This document shows, piece by piece, positions 13,691 to 64,000 of a DNA stretch of 64,000 nucleotides. The notes under the pieces were generated by a model. It made no database searches, was not told where the DNA came from, and worked only from the letters and a program-made list of their open reading frames with translations. Position 1 is the stretch's first letter, and every line of letters starts with the position of its first letter. The stretch is taken from NCBI GenBank assembly GCA_031284905.1, contig JAITXI010000077.1, positions 6,670 through 70,669 on the forward strand, written 5' to 3'. The stretch comes from Bacteroidales bacterium. Lineage in GTDB: Bacteria; Bacteroidota; Bacteroidia; Bacteroidales; ML635J-15. Position numbers and translations under genes: made by a program.

Positions 13691-13780
13691 GGAGAGATGT
13701 CCGAGTGGTTGAAGGAGCACGCCTGGAAAGTGTGTATGCGGTGTTAAATTGCATCATGGGTTCGAATCCCATTTTCTCCG
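13691..13780 (+). tRNA. tRNA-Ser (anticodon GGA), class II long variable arm, no encoded CCA
   Basis: Acceptor GGAGAGA/TTTCTCC. T-arm ATGGG-TTCGAAT-CCCAT. Anticodon stem CACGC/GUGUG with loop CUGGAAA. Long extra arm GCGGTG...GCATCA. Confidence 0.95.
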
Positions 13781-20597: not shown

Positions 20598-21860
20598 ATG
20601 AAAAAAACTATAGTTTTATTTATTTTTTGTTTTGCGTTTGCAAATATTAATTTGTTTTCACAAGCTATTTGTGAATGTACCTCAGATCCTAATTGTATTG
20701 ACATAGTCGGTGGTACGAATAATGCTAAACCTGGAGAAGTATGTCCGGAAACTTTGCCTGTCGGAACTGTTGGTGTGCATTATAGTGTAACTTTGACAAT
20801 AATACCTCCGACATCAGCTGAAGTTGGAGGTATTACAGTTAACGCTATAGCAGCTATAAAAATTATGTCTGTTCAGGGTTTACCAACTGGTTTTTCGTAT
20901 TGTCAAAGTTCTGAATATTTAGTTTCCGGTCAGAGAAGTTGCGTCGTTCTTTCCGGTACGACTACAGAATCCGGACATTTTCCAATAACCTTAAACCTTA
21001 AAGCATACGGCTCAGCTGCAGGTATTTATTTTGCACTTCCCAATGGAAATGTAACAGATAATACTCTTTTTATAGATATTGAACCAGGCGTTATAGTTGT
21101 CGCTCCGATTGCAAATTTCTATGTAAACAAAACAGATCCTACAATTAACGAACCTATTCAATTTACAGATATGAGTATAAACGAACCAACTTCCTGGTTA
21201 TGGAATTTTGGCGATCAAACAACTTCTATAGAACAAAATCCGGCACATACTTATCAATCTGAAGGCAATTACACTGTTTCACTAACAGTTTCTAATGCTG
21301 AAGGAGCAAATACTAAATCAATGCCTGCTTATATTCATGTACATGCAACTGCAACCGAAGTTGCCCCTGTTGCCCAATTTACTGTAGATAAAACTAATCC
21401 TGCTGTAAATGAATCTATTCAATTCACAGATATGAGTGCAAATGCTCCAACTTCTTGGCAATGGGATTTTGGGGACGGATTAGGAGCAACAACTCAAAGT
21501 CCTGCTCATACTTATCACAATATTGGAGATTTTACCGTTACTTTAATAGCTGAAAATGGTACGGGAAAAGATACGATAACAAAAGAAAATTTTATTCATG
21601 TTAAAACAAATGCAATTGCTTCTAATGAAATTTTCAATAGTGTTTTAGTTTATCCAAATCCTGCAAATAATGAATTAACTGTTGAAGCTGAGAATGTTGA
21701 ATCTATTACAATTCTTGATGTCAGAGGCTTAGTGGTTTATTATGGTCAAACTAAAGATAAAGTAAATAACATAGATATTAGTAATTTGCCTAACGCAAAC
21801 TATATAGTTAAAGTAAAAGTAAAAGACCAAATGGTAACAAAAGCTTTATTAAAACAATAA
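20598..21860 (+). CDS. T9SS cargo protein with Ig-like N-terminal region and two tandem PKD domains
   Basis: Two PKD units sharing IQFTDMS..PTSW.W.FGD....Q.PAHTY. C-terminal VLVYPNPANNELTVEA...YIVKVKV sorting domain. Confidence 0.85.
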   Translation: MKKTIVLFIFCFAFANINLFSQAICECTSDPNCIDIVGGTNNAKPGEVCPETLPVGTVGVHYSVTLTIIPPTSAEVGGITVNAIAAIKIMSVQGLPTGFSYCQSSEYLVSGQRSCVVLSGTTTESGHFPITLNLKAYGSAAGIYFALPNGNVTDNTLFIDIEPGVIVVAPIANFYVNKTDPTINEPIQFTDMSINEPTSWLWNFGDQTTSIEQNPAHTYQSEGNYTVSLTVSNAEGANTKSMPAYIHVHATATEVAPVAQFTVDKTNPAVNESIQFTDMSANAPTSWQWDFGDGLGATTQSPAHTYHNIGDFTVTLIAENGTGKDTITKENFIHVKTNAIASNEIFNSVLVYPNPANNELTVEAENVESITILDVRGLVVYYGQTKDKVNNIDISNLPNANYIVKVKVKDQMVTKALLKQ

Positions 21861-33655: not shown

Positions 33656-33818
33656 TTATTTTTTTATAAGTTTGCAACTTATGAAAAATTTATACATAGA
33701 ACCTAGTAATGGTATAACTATTAAATTCTTTGCAAAAATCGTCTGCAATACAAAAAAATTTTCTAACTATGCTCATAATCTTTATTTATTTACTTTTTTT
33801 TGACAAATTATCCCGAAC

Positions 33819-34245
33819 TCAGGTCGCTACGATAAGTAGCATTGAGTGCCCCTCATATTTGTTGCTTTTGAGAATGGGATATGACAAAGTATAACTGCCG
33901 GTACTGACCAATAAACCCAAAACTATCTTTGGTTGACTGTGTTTTCCATCTTTTGAAAAGCCTGTTTTTCGCAGTTCGTCAGCAATATCCGTTTCAAAAT
34001 ATTTCTAATATTGGACAACAACGTTTCTGTAACTTGTTTCTCTTCTTTTTACGCGTATGTCCTGCAAAAATATCTCGCTCGCCAAGATAAGCCAAAAGCC
34101 ATTTTTTGCCCTGCTGATACAACTTTTCTATATCAGAGGTATCTGAACCGTTACCGATAGTTTTAACAACATGATATTTATCACTACTTTTATCTATTAT
34201 CTGAACGCTTATAACATCGCTCGGATTCTTTTTTCGTATAAACAT
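33819..34245 (-). mobile_element. Degraded IS1634-family transposase gene (internally deleted, truncated)
   Basis: N-terminal block MFIRKKNPSDVISVQIIDKSSDKYHVVKTIGNGSDTSDIEKL runs from 34245. It is joined out of frame to the central block DIADELRKTGFSKDGKHSQPKIVLGLLVSTGSYTLSYPILKSNKYEGHSML (33989 down to the stop at 33819). The rest of the protein is absent. Confidence 0.7.
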
Positions 34246-34531
34246 ACTGCAAAAATAACCTTTTTTAGGCTGAGACACCCAAAATGGTGTCCTGAAATTT
34301 ATATGTACTGTATATGTGAGTGCTATGAATTTATTGAAATAAAAATGTCGAAGTCAGGAGAATTTAGAATTATAAAGTAAGACTAATGAAAATCCTATTA
34401 TTATCAACATTAAAACTCCATGCTTCCTATATTGTCTGTAATGCAAACATTTTTTTTAATTTTATTATTTATTTTTACTATTTTTTCAGTCTGTAAAGAT
34501 AATATTTTTTTAAATAGAAATAATTTTTTTG

Positions 34532-49454: not shown

Positions 49455-50176
49455 ATTATTTTTATGGTTTTATATTTTTAATTTTTTACAAAATTAGCAC
49501 AATTTTCATAATTTTCATATTTGTCCTTATATTTTAGCATGTAATTATAGTAGAAACACATAATTGTGCTACGCTTTAGTTCTTTATCTGCATTTGTTTG
49601 TAAGTTGCTTTTCGTAAGTGTCTTTTGTCTTTATGCTTATAACCAACAACACAGCTATCTATAATAAATGTAGCTCAAAAAATTTCAATCTTTCTTATAC
49701 ACTACACCTTGTTAATATATGAGAAATATTTTGCATTTTTGTTGCCAAAAACGCTATTATACAATTAAAATCAAACCAGAAAACAAGCAGGTCATTGCAG
49801 AAGGCAGGTACACACAGCCAAGAGTTGTACAAAAACACGATGCTCTACATTTAACATAAATTGACCAACCGCAAATTATTTGTATAATGAGGTGTACGTT
49901 TTGTAAAAATAAACGATAGGCAACTATGGATTTTGTAGTCATATTTTGTGAATCTTGGCTATAGCTTAATGCATTATAAATTTTTGCTACATATTTATTC
50001 TAATATATTTTAAAAACTTCGGGGCTACAAAGCCATCTTTTAAAACGTTAAACTAACAAATCATTAATAATAAATCATTTACGTTTTAATCCATGTTAAA
50101 ATTTACCTTGTTTATTTGTTTTTTTACAAAATATTTTTTGTACGATTTTTGTTTACAATAATAAAAATTTAACAAA

Positions 50177-58326: not shown

Positions 58327-58342
58327 TAAAAATATAAAAAAG

Positions 58343-58381
58343 AAGTAAGAGGCTGTCAATGTTGGCAGTCTCTTACTTTTT
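58343..58381 (+). terminator. Strong intrinsic terminator
   Basis: A 15-bp stem. AAGTAAGAG (58343-58351) pairs with CTCTTACTT (58370-58378). The inner part is GCTGTC/GGCAGT with G-U pairs around loop AATGTT. It is followed by TTT. Confidence 0.85.
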
Positions 58382-60116: not shown

Positions 60117-60130
60117 TATTTTAATAAAAA

Positions 60131-60158
60131 AACGAGTAATTAAATTTGCTCGTTTTTT
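60131..60158 (+). terminator. Intrinsic terminator
   Basis: Stem ACGAG/CTCGT extended by A-U pairs, with a 11-nt loop, followed by TTTTTTT. Confidence 0.65.
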
Positions 60159-60205
60159 TATTTATTTTTAAGAATAAAAAATTTTGAAAATAGCTAAAAC
60201 TATTA

Positions 60206-60236: not shown

Positions 60237-62222
60237 ATGAAAAAAACACAATTTGATCCTGAAAAAAATTATATAGAAACTAGGGAAAAAATTGGCTACG
60301 TGCCACGAACAGAAGCTACTCAAGAAACTTACGATAAAATAGGATTTATGTCAGGTTTAGAAGTTCATCAACAACTTTTGACTGAAAAAAAATTATTTTG
60401 TCATTGTAAAGCAGGAGTTTTTCATAAAAATGAAGAATTTGATGCAGAAATAGTTCGTCACATGAGACCAACTTTAAGCGAACTTGGAGAATATGACGGC
60501 ACAGCTTTAATGGAATTTAAAACAAAAAAAGAAATTGTTTACAGAATCAATAATGAAAACGCTTGTACTTACGAAGTTGATGATACTCCTCCATTTATAA
60601 TAAATAAAGAAGCATTAAATAAAGCATTGCAAATAACAATGTTAAGTAAATTTAATTTAGTTGGAGAAGTTCATATTACAAGAAAACAATATCTTGACGG
60701 AAGTATTCCAACCGGCTTTCAACGTACAGCAATTTTAGGAGTTGAAGGTGAAATTCAATTAAGAAATAAAAAAGTAAGATTAATTCAACTAAGTATTGAA
60801 GAAGATTCTTGCCGTGAAATTAGTGATATTGGTCATCGTAGAATTTACAAAACAGACCGTTTAGGAATGCCTTTAATAGAAACAGTAACTTATCCTGATA
60901 TGGTCAATCCAGACGAAGTTAAAGAAGCCTGCGACTATATCCGATTTTTAAATCGTTCTTCAAATAATGTCCGAATAGGAATGGGAGCTACTCGTCAAGA
61001 TGTAAACGTTAGTTGTAAAGGCGGTACACGAATTGAAATAAAAGGAGTTGCTCATACAAAATGGATTCCGGAATTAACTCATAATGAGTGTTTTAGACAA
61101 TGGGCATTATTAGCAATTCAAAAAGAACTCAAAAATCGTTTTGCTTCAGAAAATGAAATGCAAAATTGGAAAACCAACTACGCAGAATTGAATTTTGACG
61201 AATTTAAAATAACAACCGAAGCTATTAAACAAGCAAAAGAAAATAATCATAAATTAATCGCAGTAAATATTCCAAAATTTAAAGGAATTTTATCTCATTT
61301 TACCCAACCGGGAAAATGTTTTGCAGATGAAATTTCTGACAGATTAAAAGTTATTGCTTGTATTGAAAAGCCAAATATGATTCATAACGAACTTCCTAAC
61401 CAACCGATAACACCTGTTGATATGGAAATTATTCAATTAATCATGCAAACCGATGAAGAAAATGACAGTTTGATAATTTTTTGGGCACCGGAAGCTGATG
61501 TAAAAACAGCATTAGAAACCATTGAAGAAAGATGTAAAATGGCATTTTTTGAAGGCGTGCCAAAAGAAACAAGAAAATCATTTGAAAATGGAACTACAAT
61601 TTTTGAAAGAGTTTTACCGGGAGCTGACAGGATGTATCCGGATACAGATTCAACTCCTATTCCACTTGATAATAACGAATTGGAAGAATTAAGAAAAAAT
61701 ATTCCCGAAGATGTTTGCGAAAGAATAAATCAATTTCAAAAATGGCAATTCCCTGAAGATACTTTTACTTATCTTTTAAGCAAAAATTTATTTTCAATTA
61801 TTAAACAAACCATTGATTTAGATTTTAACCCAAAATTTATCGCAAAATTATTTGGACATTTTCTTAAAAACTACGAAGGAAAAAATCAAAATATTAAAAT
61901 TGACTACAACAAAATTATAGAATTATTAAAATTCATTAAAAATAATCATTTGGAATGTGAAATAGCATTTAAAATGTTACCTAAAATATTTACTAATATA
62001 GACAATAATTTTGAAAATATCCTTTCTGAAATAAAATTCAAGAAATATTCACAAGAAGAAATTCTTTCAAAAATTGACTCTTTAAGCTACGACTTTGATA
62101 AAGTTGCGAAAGAAAGAAACACAAAAAATAAGATTGCTTGGATAATGGAAGAACTCCGTGATACAGCAATTGGAAATATCAATTTAACAGAATTAAAAAA
62201 TAACATTGCTAATAGAATATAA
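60237..62222 (+). CDS. gatE: Glutamyl-tRNA(Gln) amidotransferase subunit E (archaeal type)
   Basis: Matches the GatE pattern and not GatB: GLEVHQQLLTEKKLFCHC, RHMRPTLSELGEYD, YLDGSIPTGFQRTAILG, KTDRLGMPLIETVTYPDM, GMGATRQDVNVS and IEIKGV. 661 aa with a long C-terminal helical tail. Confidence 0.9.
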   Translation: MKKTQFDPEKNYIETREKIGYVPRTEATQETYDKIGFMSGLEVHQQLLTEKKLFCHCKAGVFHKNEEFDAEIVRHMRPTLSELGEYDGTALMEFKTKKEIVYRINNENACTYEVDDTPPFIINKEALNKALQITMLSKFNLVGEVHITRKQYLDGSIPTGFQRTAILGVEGEIQLRNKKVRLIQLSIEEDSCREISDIGHRRIYKTDRLGMPLIETVTYPDMVNPDEVKEACDYIRFLNRSSNNVRIGMGATRQDVNVSCKGGTRIEIKGVAHTKWIPELTHNECFRQWALLAIQKELKNRFASENEMQNWKTNYAELNFDEFKITTEAIKQAKENNHKLIAVNIPKFKGILSHFTQPGKCFADEISDRLKVIACIEKPNMIHNELPNQPITPVDMEIIQLIMQTDEENDSLIIFWAPEADVKTALETIEERCKMAFFEGVPKETRKSFENGTTIFERVLPGADRMYPDTDSTPIPLDNNELEELRKNIPEDVCERINQFQKWQFPEDTFTYLLSKNLFSIIKQTIDLDFNPKFIAKLFGHFLKNYEGKNQNIKIDYNKIIELLKFIKNNHLECEIAFKMLPKIFTNIDNNFENILSEIKFKKYSQEEILSKIDSLSYDFDKVAKERNTKNKIAWIMEELRDTAIGNINLTELKNNIANRI

Positions 62223-62231
62223 TTTACGAAA

Positions 62232-63617
62232 ATGGAAGGAAAAGATTTACAAGGCTATAAAGGAAAAGCAAGAGAAATTTTACAAAAATATAATGTTAGA
62301 GTTTGGGGTGAAGTAGTTATACAATCTACAAGAGGAGAGTTTAAAGGAAGAGTATTACCGCGTGCTGAAAATACAGACGACATTCATATTGTTTTAAAAG
62401 TAAATACAGGATATAATATCGGAATTGACATAAATACAATTACAGATATTAAAGAAATAGGTTATAATGTAGCAAATTATGCCATTCCTGAGAAACAGTT
62501 TCCCTGCACAGAAGGATTACCACACGTAAAACTTTTAGGAACCGGAGGAACAATTGCTTCACGATTGGATTATCGTACAGGGGCAGTAATACCGGCATTT
62601 TCTCCGGGAGAATTGTATGGAGCAGTTCCGGAACTTGCCGATATTTGTAATTTAGATACCGAGAAAATCTTCGCAGTTTTTAGCGAAAATATGGGTCCCG
62701 AACAATACATTAAATTAGCAGAAGCTATTGGTAATGAAATAGAAAAAGGAATTGACGGAATCGTAATTGGGCATGGAACAGACACATTACACCATACAGG
62801 AGCTGCCTTAACATTTATGTGTCAAAATTTACCGGTTCCTGTTGTCCTTGTTGGCTCGCAACGTTCTTCTGACAGACCAAGTTCCGATGCAGCTCTAAAT
62901 TTAATGCACGCAATGACAGCAGCCGGACGAGGAAATATTGCAGAAGTAATGATTTGTATGTTCGGACCAACTTCCGATGAATATGGGCTACTTCATAAAG
63001 GAACAAGAGTAAGAAAAATGCATTCTTCATATCGTTCTACTTTCCGAACAATTGGAGATACCCCACTTGCAATGGTTACCCGTAAAGGAGTTGAACCTAT
63101 CAAAAAAATATTTAACACAAGGCGTAACGATAAAAATGTAATTATAAAACCATATTTTTCCGATAAAGTAACAATGGTTTATTATTATACAGGAATGAAA
63201 CCTGACGTAATTGACGGATTAGTTGCTGCCGGCTATAAAGGAATAATTTTTGTCGGTACAGGATTAGGACACGTAAACAAACTTATTTATCCGGCAATTC
63301 GCAGAGCACAAGAAGCTGGTGTTCACATGTATATGACTCTTCAAACAATTTGGGGCTATGTGCAAATGTACGTTTACGACACAGGTAGAGATATGATGGC
63401 TATGGGAATAATTCCGGCAGGAAATATGTTACCGGAAGTTGCATACATAAAATTAGGTTGGGCATTAGGTCAAACTGACGACCATGAAGAAGTAAAACGA
63501 TTGATGCTCACTCCGATAAATGATGAAATTACAGAAAGAGAACCATATAATGGATATTTAGTTTATCAAGGAGGAGTACCGGAAGTAGAAGAATTTATTA
63601 AAAAAGTACATAAGTAA
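62232..63617 (+). CDS. gatD: Glutamyl-tRNA(Gln) amidotransferase subunit D (asparaginase-like, archaeal type)
   Basis: GatD-specific N-terminal beta domain (GEVVIQSTRGEFKGRVLP...VLKVNTGYNIGI). Asparaginase catalytic motifs GTGGTIASRLDYRTGAV and GHGTDTLHHT. 461 aa. Confidence 0.9.
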   Translation: MEGKDLQGYKGKAREILQKYNVRVWGEVVIQSTRGEFKGRVLPRAENTDDIHIVLKVNTGYNIGIDINTITDIKEIGYNVANYAIPEKQFPCTEGLPHVKLLGTGGTIASRLDYRTGAVIPAFSPGELYGAVPELADICNLDTEKIFAVFSENMGPEQYIKLAEAIGNEIEKGIDGIVIGHGTDTLHHTGAALTFMCQNLPVPVVLVGSQRSSDRPSSDAALNLMHAMTAAGRGNIAEVMICMFGPTSDEYGLLHKGTRVRKMHSSYRSTFRTIGDTPLAMVTRKGVEPIKKIFNTRRNDKNVIIKPYFSDKVTMVYYYTGMKPDVIDGLVAAGYKGIIFVGTGLGHVNKLIYPAIRRAQEAGVHMYMTLQTIWGYVQMYVYDTGRDMMAMGIIPAGNMLPEVAYIKLGWALGQTDDHEEVKRLMLTPINDEITEREPYNGYLVYQGGVPEVEEFIKKVHK

Positions 63618-63620
63618 AAA

Positions 63621-63780
63621 ATACGGGTGAACAAACCGGAAACGGACAGATGATGTTTGTTAGCATGAGGGCTATCGCCACTCTACAAGTTGAACAATAA
63701 AATCTAAAATCGTAAACGGCTTTAGCCCTCTTGTGGCGTGAAGCGTAACAACGGCAAAGTTCTAATGTAGCAAAGCGGAA
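63621..63780 (+). ncRNA. Candidate structured RNA (unassigned family): either a 5' leader of the downstream gene or an independent sRNA
   Basis: My hand count gives 70 G+C in 160 nt, far above neighbouring intergenic DNA. Hairpin AACAAA/TTTGTT plus CCG-GAAA-CGG (63630-63661). Long-range helix GAGGGCTA (63667-63674)/TAGCCCTC (63723-63730). Competing or pseudoknot pairing CGCCAC (63676-63681)/GTGGCG (63733-63738). Strand not established. Confidence 0.4.
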
Positions 63781-63789
63781 TAATCAAAA

Positions 63790-64000
63790 ATGATTGACAT
63801 AGATAATAAAATAGTTCATTTTGATGTTTTTCAGGAAAAATTTTGTTGTAATTTACAGAAATGTAAAGGAAAATGTTGTATAGAAGGTGATTTAGGAGCA
63901 CCTTTAACAAAAAAAGAAATTACGGAAATAAAAAAAATCTTACCTAAAATTCAAGAATTTTTAACACCCGAAGCAAAAAAAGCAATCAAAGAAAATAATT
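63790..64000 (+). CDS. DUF3109-family Cys-rich protein, 3' end outside the window
   Basis: ATG at 63790. Translation is MIDIDNKIVHFDVFQEKFCCNLQKCKGKCCIEGDLGAPLTKKE, carrying the C.L.KCKG.CC.EGD.GAPL signature. The ORF is still open at the window end. Confidence 0.7.
   Translation, partial: MIDIDNKIVHFDVFQEKFCCNLQKCKGKCCIEGDLGAPLTKKEITEIKKILPKIQEFLTPEAKKAIKENN

Follow-up and report, generated by a model that had tools for sequence, protein, structure and literature searches.

A G+C-rich spacer and its palindromic hairpin between gatD and a DUF3109 gene in an A+T-rich Bacteroidales genome

The intrinsic terminators of Bacteroidales are G+C-rich stems that lie 3' of a gene on the coding strand, with a loop of 3–8 nt and a T-run. 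Hairpins of the REP/BIME type, such as the stabilisers of Escherichia coli malE–malF, are imperfect palindromes between co-directional genes; they lack terminator activity, are expected to protect the upstream mRNA from 3' exonucleases, and form multicopy families of conserved sequence. Riboswitches and other leader RNAs stand directly upstream of a start codon, are G+C-rich relative to their genome and contain competing pairings. Short G+C-rich imperfect palindromes in A+T-rich intergenic DNA are also known as miniature insertions, including MITEs, the palindromic elements of Rickettsia and the G+C clusters found in the A+T-rich spacers of yeast mitochondrial DNA. In A+T-rich genomes, a G+C-rich island outside coding sequence is often an RNA gene, and G+C-content screens for non-coding RNA genes make use of this.

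Here, we analyzed a spacer between gatD and a gene of the DUF3109 family that shares traits with each of these systems. The spacer lies in a 64,000-nucleotide stretch of a Bacteroidales contig (JAITXI010000077.1), hereafter the window. It holds a 64-nt imperfect palindrome, hairpin B, whose stem resembles both the window's own terminators (58340–58381 and 60130–60160) in being G+C-rich, 3' of a gene and on the coding strand, and the terminator that follows an S8 peptidase gene in a related organism (L084–L087). With the latter it is near-identical, differing by one compensated pair and occupying the same position relative to DUF3109. However, the true terminators of the window are perfect stems of 8–19 bp followed by T5–7, whereas hairpin B has a 48-nt interior and the tail TTGTGGCG, and it was not called by a terminator scan. 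Like a REP, it is an imperfect palindrome between co-directional genes without terminator activity; unlike the REPs, it was single-copy in everything searched, and a REP-like role would be putative. The spacer shares with riboswitches its place before a start codon, its G+C content and its competing pairings, but has no family match, no conservation upstream of DUF3109, no fold better than shuffled sequence and no expression platform such as a terminator. Hairpin B is also, like the miniature palindromic insertions, lineage-specific and nested in what appears to be an older hairpin; here, however, no target-site duplication or other copies were found, and the G+C richness extends beyond the palindrome.

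The spacer and its base composition

The spacer extends for 172 nt on the plus strand (63618–63789), from the gatD stop codon (63615–63617) to the ATG at 63790 of the DUF3109 (PF11307) gene, and is G+C-rich and non-coding. The window contains the 5' part of the DUF3109 gene (63790–64000, plus strand); the full gene, completed from an identical 19.9-kb Logan contig (L001, 11559–12140), encodes 193 aa. Upstream lie gatD (62232–63617, plus strand), a probable source of read-through transcription, and gatE (60237–62222, plus strand). In the gene list of the window, the neighbouring genes are all on the plus strand. A preliminary description, made from the sequence by eye, had named gatD and DUF3109 as the flanking genes, and the gene calls agreed. 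The S8 peptidases of the window carry T9SS tails, which together with the database names of homologues point to Bacteroidales as the source.

The gatE–gatD pair (60237–63617) encodes an amidotransferase of the archaeal GatDE type, here in a Bacteroidales genome of 28% G+C. Its GatD has counterparts of 73–92% identity in at least 80 species-level MAGs, spread over Bacteroidales, Marinilabiliales, Lentimicrobiaceae and even Cloacimonadales (loci L002–L081, L092–L096 and L149–L150). In a full-text literature search, GatDE and Bacteroidetes were named together by only two papers, and by neither in its title or abstract.

The G+C content over 63621–63780 was computed as 43.8%, in keeping with the value of about 44% first counted by hand, and as 41.3% over the whole 172-nt spacer; the window has 28.3%, and its other intergenic stretches have 8–32%. 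Only 0.25% of all 160-nt segments of the window reach 43.75%. These form five clusters, and the gatD–DUF3109 spacer is the only non-coding one among them. Its 100-nt maximum (0.45) is tRNA-like, the tRNA of the window having 0.46. The flanks of hairpin B (63618–63666 and 63731–63780), which lie outside the palindrome, have 41% G+C. The G+C island is therefore real and exceptional. All features of the preliminary description are present in the sequence, but the island and hairpin B are the only two that exceed chance.

Other G+C-rich stretches of the window were noted separately. A gap of 338 nt contains a second non-coding island (33812–33911; 100-nt G+C of 0.45), which may be a gene remnant; this island adjoins a minus-strand open reading frame of 94 aa (33994–34278) that looks by eye like a truncated transposase N-terminus and has no Pfam match. 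A 722-nt gap upstream of a minus-strand cysS-like gene (49455–50176) holds an island of 0.42 G+C peaking at 49776–49875, with no open reading frame of convincing size and no Rfam match at the gathering threshold. Finally, a 1-kb stretch without a long open reading frame (1184–2184) contains an island of 0.44 G+C peaking at 1471–1570 and may be a decayed gene; a 73-aa minus-strand frame within it has the look of a membrane protein and no Pfam match.

Hairpin B and its counterpart in a related organism

Hairpin B (63667–63730, not assigned to a strand) is the only statistically supported structure in the spacer. Its outer stem, S1, is formed by GAGGGCTA (63667–63674, plus strand) and TAGCCCTC (63723–63730, plus strand), which pair as a perfect 8-bp helix with five G–C pairs; the 3' arm is followed by TTGTGGCG, with no T-run. 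The enclosed 48 nt (63675–63722, likewise not assigned to a strand) consist of an inner imperfect inverted repeat, GCCACTCTACAA and TCGTAAACGGC, around an apex of 20 nt with 20% G+C. Taken together, the terminal inverted repeats have arms of 22 nt with 16 Watson–Crick matches, or 19 when G·T is counted. An ECF-sigma-like TGAAC-N15-CGTA was also noted in the apex.

Folded alone, hairpin B had a minimum free energy (MFE) of −17.7 kcal/mol on the plus strand and −24.5 kcal/mol on the minus strand; cut at its own borders, it gave z scores of −4.4 and −4.9, respectively. In a best-local-window test against shuffles, in which the shuffles were sampled more coarsely than the native sequence, the minus strand reached −24.5 kcal/mol (P<0.005, 0 of 200 shuffles) and the plus strand −18.4 kcal/mol (P=0.135). 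The minus-strand fold was the third most stable among 21,314 64-nt segments of the 64 kb, a rank that applies to the minus strand only, and the hairpin appeared in the centroid structure of both strands. It folds better on the minus strand because three non-Watson–Crick positions of the inner helix, read from the sequence, are G·U there and A·C on the plus strand. The preliminary description had singled out S1 as a long-range helix enclosing about 48 nt. The helix is indeed present at 63667–63674/63723–63730 and the hairpin that it closes stands out, but a perfect helix of at least 8 bp by itself arises in 8.6% of dinucleotide shuffles.

Elsewhere in the window, the second most stable local fold is a near-perfect hairpin, ATAATACCTCCGAC...GTTGGAGGTATTA, of −25 to −32 kcal/mol (20785–20848, plus strand), which lies inside the open reading frame 20598–21860.

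We compared the locus with relatives, none of which is closer than about genus level. Downstream of gatD, the element was absent from 80 GTDB loci and from the 10 loci with the closest GatD proteins. Most of the 15 closest GTDB loci, inspected by eye, have a hairpin with a T-run terminator after gatD and then varied genes. Where the GatD proteins are closest (90–92%), gatD does not adjoin gatE and the spacers have 10–24% G+C; the neighbour of gatD is atpA in L002, L149 and L150, and other genes in L092, L093 and L096. Upstream of DUF3109 homologues (58–68% identity), the element was absent from seven lineages, further spacers being checked by nhmmer; these spacers measure 3 nt, 58 nt or 291 nt (21% G+C), or are occupied by a tRNA. 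Hairpin B is missing from two other sister lineages, L143, which has an S8 peptidase gene, the 291-nt A+T-rich spacer and DUF3109, and L082. Gene order in the clade is very fluid. The 172-nt element as a whole is accordingly not conserved at these gatD loci (about 90) or in the seven DUF3109 lineages, an outcome that the preliminary description had named as counting against its proposal; only the S1 stem recurs, in one lineage.

Several features of the DUF3109 neighbourhood were observed in passing. The upstream neighbour of the gene differs widely across lineages. In L148 (1–299), a tRNA-like gene with a GTC (Asp) anticodon, judged by eye, and a terminator stand directly upstream of DUF3109 (61% identity). 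In L088–L091, DUF3109 adjoins genes for rubrerythrin, ferritin, a flavin reductase and a Nitro_FeMo-Co (PF02579) domain protein, neighbours which hint that the role of this Cys-rich family has to do with redox or iron.

The lineage with the recurring stem is represented by L084–L087, four contigs of one related organism that are identical in this region. Their gene order is S8 peptidase, a 58-nt spacer, DUF3109 and two DUF1573 genes, and their proteins match those of the window at 59% (second S8 peptidase), 64% (DUF3109), and 76% and 66% identity (DUF1573a and b). Compared with L084, the window has the gatE–gatD block between the orthologous S8 and DUF3109 genes. The L084 spacer contains AAAGAGGACT-ATCTA-AGTCCTCTTT followed by CGCTTTTC. 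The scan identified this hairpin as a terminator of 10 pairs whose loop measures 5 nt and whose tail is CGCTTTTC; the number of such sites expected in shuffles is 0. The window arm GAGGGCTATC aligns with GAGGACTATC of L084 on the 5' side, and AGCCCTCTT with AGTCCTCTT on the 3' side. Within this 7-bp stem there is one difference per arm, and the two differences compensate each other (A–T to G–C). In both hairpins the loop opens with ATC, and TT follows the stem.

Across the window and 830 kb of related loci, the pattern GAGGNCT...AGN'CCTC occurred at only two places, namely the element and the L084–L087 spacer. A looser search, allowing at most one substitution per arm, returned about 22 sites, among which only those of L064 and L084–L087 were compensated. 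By our rough post hoc estimate, a match of this kind would arise by chance within the few hundred bases before a DUF3109 orthologue with a probability of about 1e-3. As judged from the aligned arms, with L084–L087 as the sole independent comparator and the match limited to the 7-bp stem, the two stems are likely homologous. The preliminary description had proposed a structured cis-acting RNA before DUF3109: a cis hairpin is probably real, its stem recurring in L084–L087, but the riboswitch-like RNA of many helices is unsupported.

Transcription signals in the spacer were also searched. A terminator scan found no terminator-like site between gatD and DUF3109 on either strand, and the Bacteroidetes −7 box TAnnTTTG was absent from both strands of 63371–64383. 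The box stands upstream of 12 of the 22 other genes that have an upstream spacer of at least 70 nt, and gatE has a −33/−7 pair. Since the remaining 10 of the 22 also lack the strict motif, its absence from the spacer is weak evidence. With neither a terminator nor a recognisable promoter in the spacer, the most likely source of DUF3109 transcripts is read-through that starts at the gatE promoter. A stand-alone sRNA, the other form suggested at first for the element, is not favoured by these motif scans, which gave no −7 box on either strand within about 250 nt and no terminator.

We tentatively favour a reading in which hairpin B is a lineage-specific intercistronic hairpin, read through by gatED transcription, and the enlarged, T-run-less descendant of a terminator. 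The ancestral state would have been an ordinary intrinsic terminator between the S8 peptidase gene and the DUF3109 gene. The gatE–gatD block would have come to separate the S8 gene from the old terminator hairpin, the 5-nt loop would have been replaced by the 48-nt palindromic interior (a growth of about 45 nt), and the T-run after the stem would have been lost. We infer the direction of change to be expansion in the lineage of the window, not deletion in L084. Transcription from the gatE promoter would then run on through the spacer into DUF3109 and probably into the DUF1573 genes as well, and hairpin B would form on the plus-strand polycistronic RNA as an intercistronic stem-loop. There it could serve as a barrier to 3' exonucleases that stabilises the gatED message, as a processing point or as a weak pause, but not as a ligand-sensing switch; stabilisation and processing are known roles of intercistronic hairpins. 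Against a role on the plus strand stand the stability tests, in which only the minus strand reached significance and the plus-strand fold (−17.7 kcal/mol) did not surpass what shuffled sequences attain in their best local window. Descent from a terminator also leaves the G+C richness of the flanks unaccounted for. Hairpin B is a real but ordinary feature.

Alternative readings of the palindrome, its flanks and its strand

A different origin of the interior, unlikely but not negligible in our judgement, is that a MITE-like or otherwise selfish palindrome, or a product of template switching during replication, landed in the loop of the old terminator. The expanded palindrome would then be functionless, and its G+C content would reflect its recent origin. 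Enclosed by the conserved stem, the additional 45 nt are themselves an imperfect inverted repeat, and the three inner-helix mismatches are all transitions, as would be the case for a perfect palindrome in decay; by our estimate, one strand of such a palindrome would fold better by chance in about 25% of cases. The element is moreover unique to this lineage and stands at a rearrangement junction, in a clade in which genes are readily reordered. However, reading of the sequence revealed no target-site duplication at the borders of the hairpin or of the island, and the S8–gatE and gatD–DUF3109 spacers share no k-mers that would mark an insertion-border duplication.

Searches for further copies, run on the window and on related sequences, likewise turned up none. 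Within the window, blastn at word size 7 found nothing longer than 14 nt, and the extra 4.7 kb of L001 beyond it contained no second copy of the spacer, so that none is present in 69 kb. A covariance model of hairpin B, run against the window and 99 related loci (808 kb), retrieved only itself at E<0.1, and in 96 related loci the element, queried by nhmmer --max, blastn and tblastx, likewise matched nothing but itself. Weak recurring nhmmer and tblastx matches inside gatD homologues (E 4–70) were rejected as one non-independent chance match. Searches of plasmid and phage collections by blastn gave nothing relevant. Exact seeds led to nothing related in either metagenomic or viral data: in the JGI metagenomes, a collection without the source contig, the 18-mer GAGGGCTATCGCCACTCT had 8 chance matches in contigs of 50–66% G+C, and three 16-mer scans of IMG/VR gave 38 chance matches, none of which extended. 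An inserted palindrome would also leave the G+C-rich flanks outside it unexplained. Among named mobile or recombination elements, an integron attC site and a REP/RAYT element were considered by eye and set aside as their defining motifs or partner genes are absent.

Another reading, which we regard as rather unlikely, is a lineage-specific functional RNA larger than the hairpin: either a DUF3109 5' leader that switches between S1 and a second pairing, CGCCAC/GTGGCG, or a processed sRNA derived from the gatD 3'-UTR. The whole 160 nt have a tRNA-like G+C content (100-nt maximum of 0.45 against 0.46) and no coding signature, in line with the link that A+T-rich genomes show between RNA genes and G+C-rich islands; 10 nt separate the end of the element from the ATG, and the two pairings compete for the same bases. 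Against this, no known family was recovered. Rfam 15 at gathering thresholds matched the window only at a tRNA (13691–13780), and with permissive filters on 63400–64000 nothing at E≤10 overlapped 63618–63789, which upholds the initial remark that the spacer fits no recognised RNA family. ARAGORN found no tRNA or tmRNA in the spacer. A hammerhead core, a tetraloop receptor, a group II intron domain 5 and a 6S-like rod were rejected, by eye, since defining motifs or partner genes are absent.

The predicted fold of the whole element speaks against a larger RNA as well, its MFE z scores of −1.25 (plus strand) and −1.24 (minus strand) being no better than those of shuffles. The compact, multi-helix or pseudoknotted, riboswitch-like RNA initially envisaged thus finds no support, with a whole-element z of about −1.3 and additional helices at chance level. 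One of these helices, a hairpin with a GAAA tetraloop, is present as sequence (AACAAA-CCG-GAAA-CGG-(10 nt)-TTTGTT, 63630–63661), but the 32-nt region has a z of only −1.15 (P=0.13) and ViennaRNA prefers a different pairing. In the part termed hairpin A (63641–63661, plus strand), the MFE alternative pairs AACGGACA with UGUUUGUU, and this is not supported as a feature either.

The second pairing, S2, consists of CGCCAC (63676–63681, plus strand), which overlaps the inner helix of hairpin B, and GTGGCG (63733–63738, plus strand); the halves begin 1 nt past the 5' arm and 2 nt past the 3' arm of S1, respectively. Both halves are where the preliminary description placed them, but about 1.4 six-bp matches between the interior of hairpin B and its flanks are expected by chance, according to our arithmetic. 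In a stacked H-type pseudoknot, a linker of 2 nt would in our judgement be too short to bridge the 8 bp of S1, so the S1 and CGCCAC/GTGGCG helices would be alternatives at best. The AACGG-like motifs reported to recur through the element do so, with AACGG at 63641, 63715 and 63750 and AGCGG at 63774; their recurrence is nonetheless at chance level, since some 5-mer recurs at least three times in 73% of shuffles. The 5' arm of S1 and CGCCAC are also spanned by a 16-codon open reading frame (63650–63700, plus strand) encoding MMFVSMRAIATLQVEQ and ending in a stop codon. Attenuation through such a leader peptide was rejected, as the frame has no run of any regulatory codon. Finally, the flanks and the second pairing occur in no relative, the DUF3109 spacers being 3–58 nt long or A+T-rich.

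It is quite improbable, in our view, that the spacer is merely non-functional filler or a relic, whether of a destroyed gene or of a captured foreign fragment, at the junction created by relocation of gatE–gatD. The element does lie exactly at the synteny breakpoint, it has no homologue anywhere searched, and other G+C-rich non-coding islands in the window may be gene remnants. A protein-coding remnant, which the preliminary description had allowed as an explanation of the G+C content, was not found. Stop codons close five of the six reading frames of the spacer. No codon periodicity was detected, the spread of G+C among codon phases being 0.12, equal to that of shuffles, whereas every 172-nt segment of gatD gives at least 0.16 (mean 0.28). 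For the only open frame (minus strand, 61 aa), an exhaustive HMMER search of 1.84 billion representative proteins gave no true homologue; its sole match was rejected as the product of a nine-fold repeat in a 1350-aa surface protein. For a native coding fragment, moreover, one would expect about 29% G+C, and 44% is reached in only 0.25% of the segments. Nor did Rfam at permissive E-values or ARAGORN detect an rRNA or tRNA fragment in the spacer.

We give still less credence to a minus-strand role for hairpin B, whether within an antisense RNA or as single-stranded DNA whose recognition is specific to one strand. Its asymmetry is consistent with such a role: −24.5 against −17.7 kcal/mol, P<0.005 against 0.135, the third rank in the window, and all three wobble positions as G·U on the minus strand. 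Yet on the minus strand the nearest upstream TAnnTTTG stands past the end of DUF3109, at a distance of about 600 nt, the scan found no minus-strand terminator, and the neighbouring genes all lie on the plus strand. The probably homologous hairpin of L084 is a plus-strand terminator, and three wobbles falling on one strand would be expected by chance in about 25% of cases by our estimate. That the old terminator was rebuilt into a signal-responsive regulatory RNA of about 160 nt, controlling read-through into DUF3109 or its translation by means of the flanks, the expanded hairpin and the competing CGCCAC/GTGGCG, we consider very improbable; if true, this would be a newly born riboswitch-like element, its relatives as yet unsampled.

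Meaning of the favoured reading

For scans of A+T-rich genomes, the spacer offers a caution: a G+C-rich island together with hand-drawn helices can mimic a riboswitch, while only one hairpin beats chance. What residual interest it holds lies in the G+C-rich flanks and in the strand asymmetry of hairpin B. If hairpin B is indeed the enlarged descendant of a terminator, the finding would matter little beyond this locus. It would be a small example of a terminator hairpin carried along, enlarged and disarmed at a remodelled operon junction, by which the downstream gene would join a new transcription unit.
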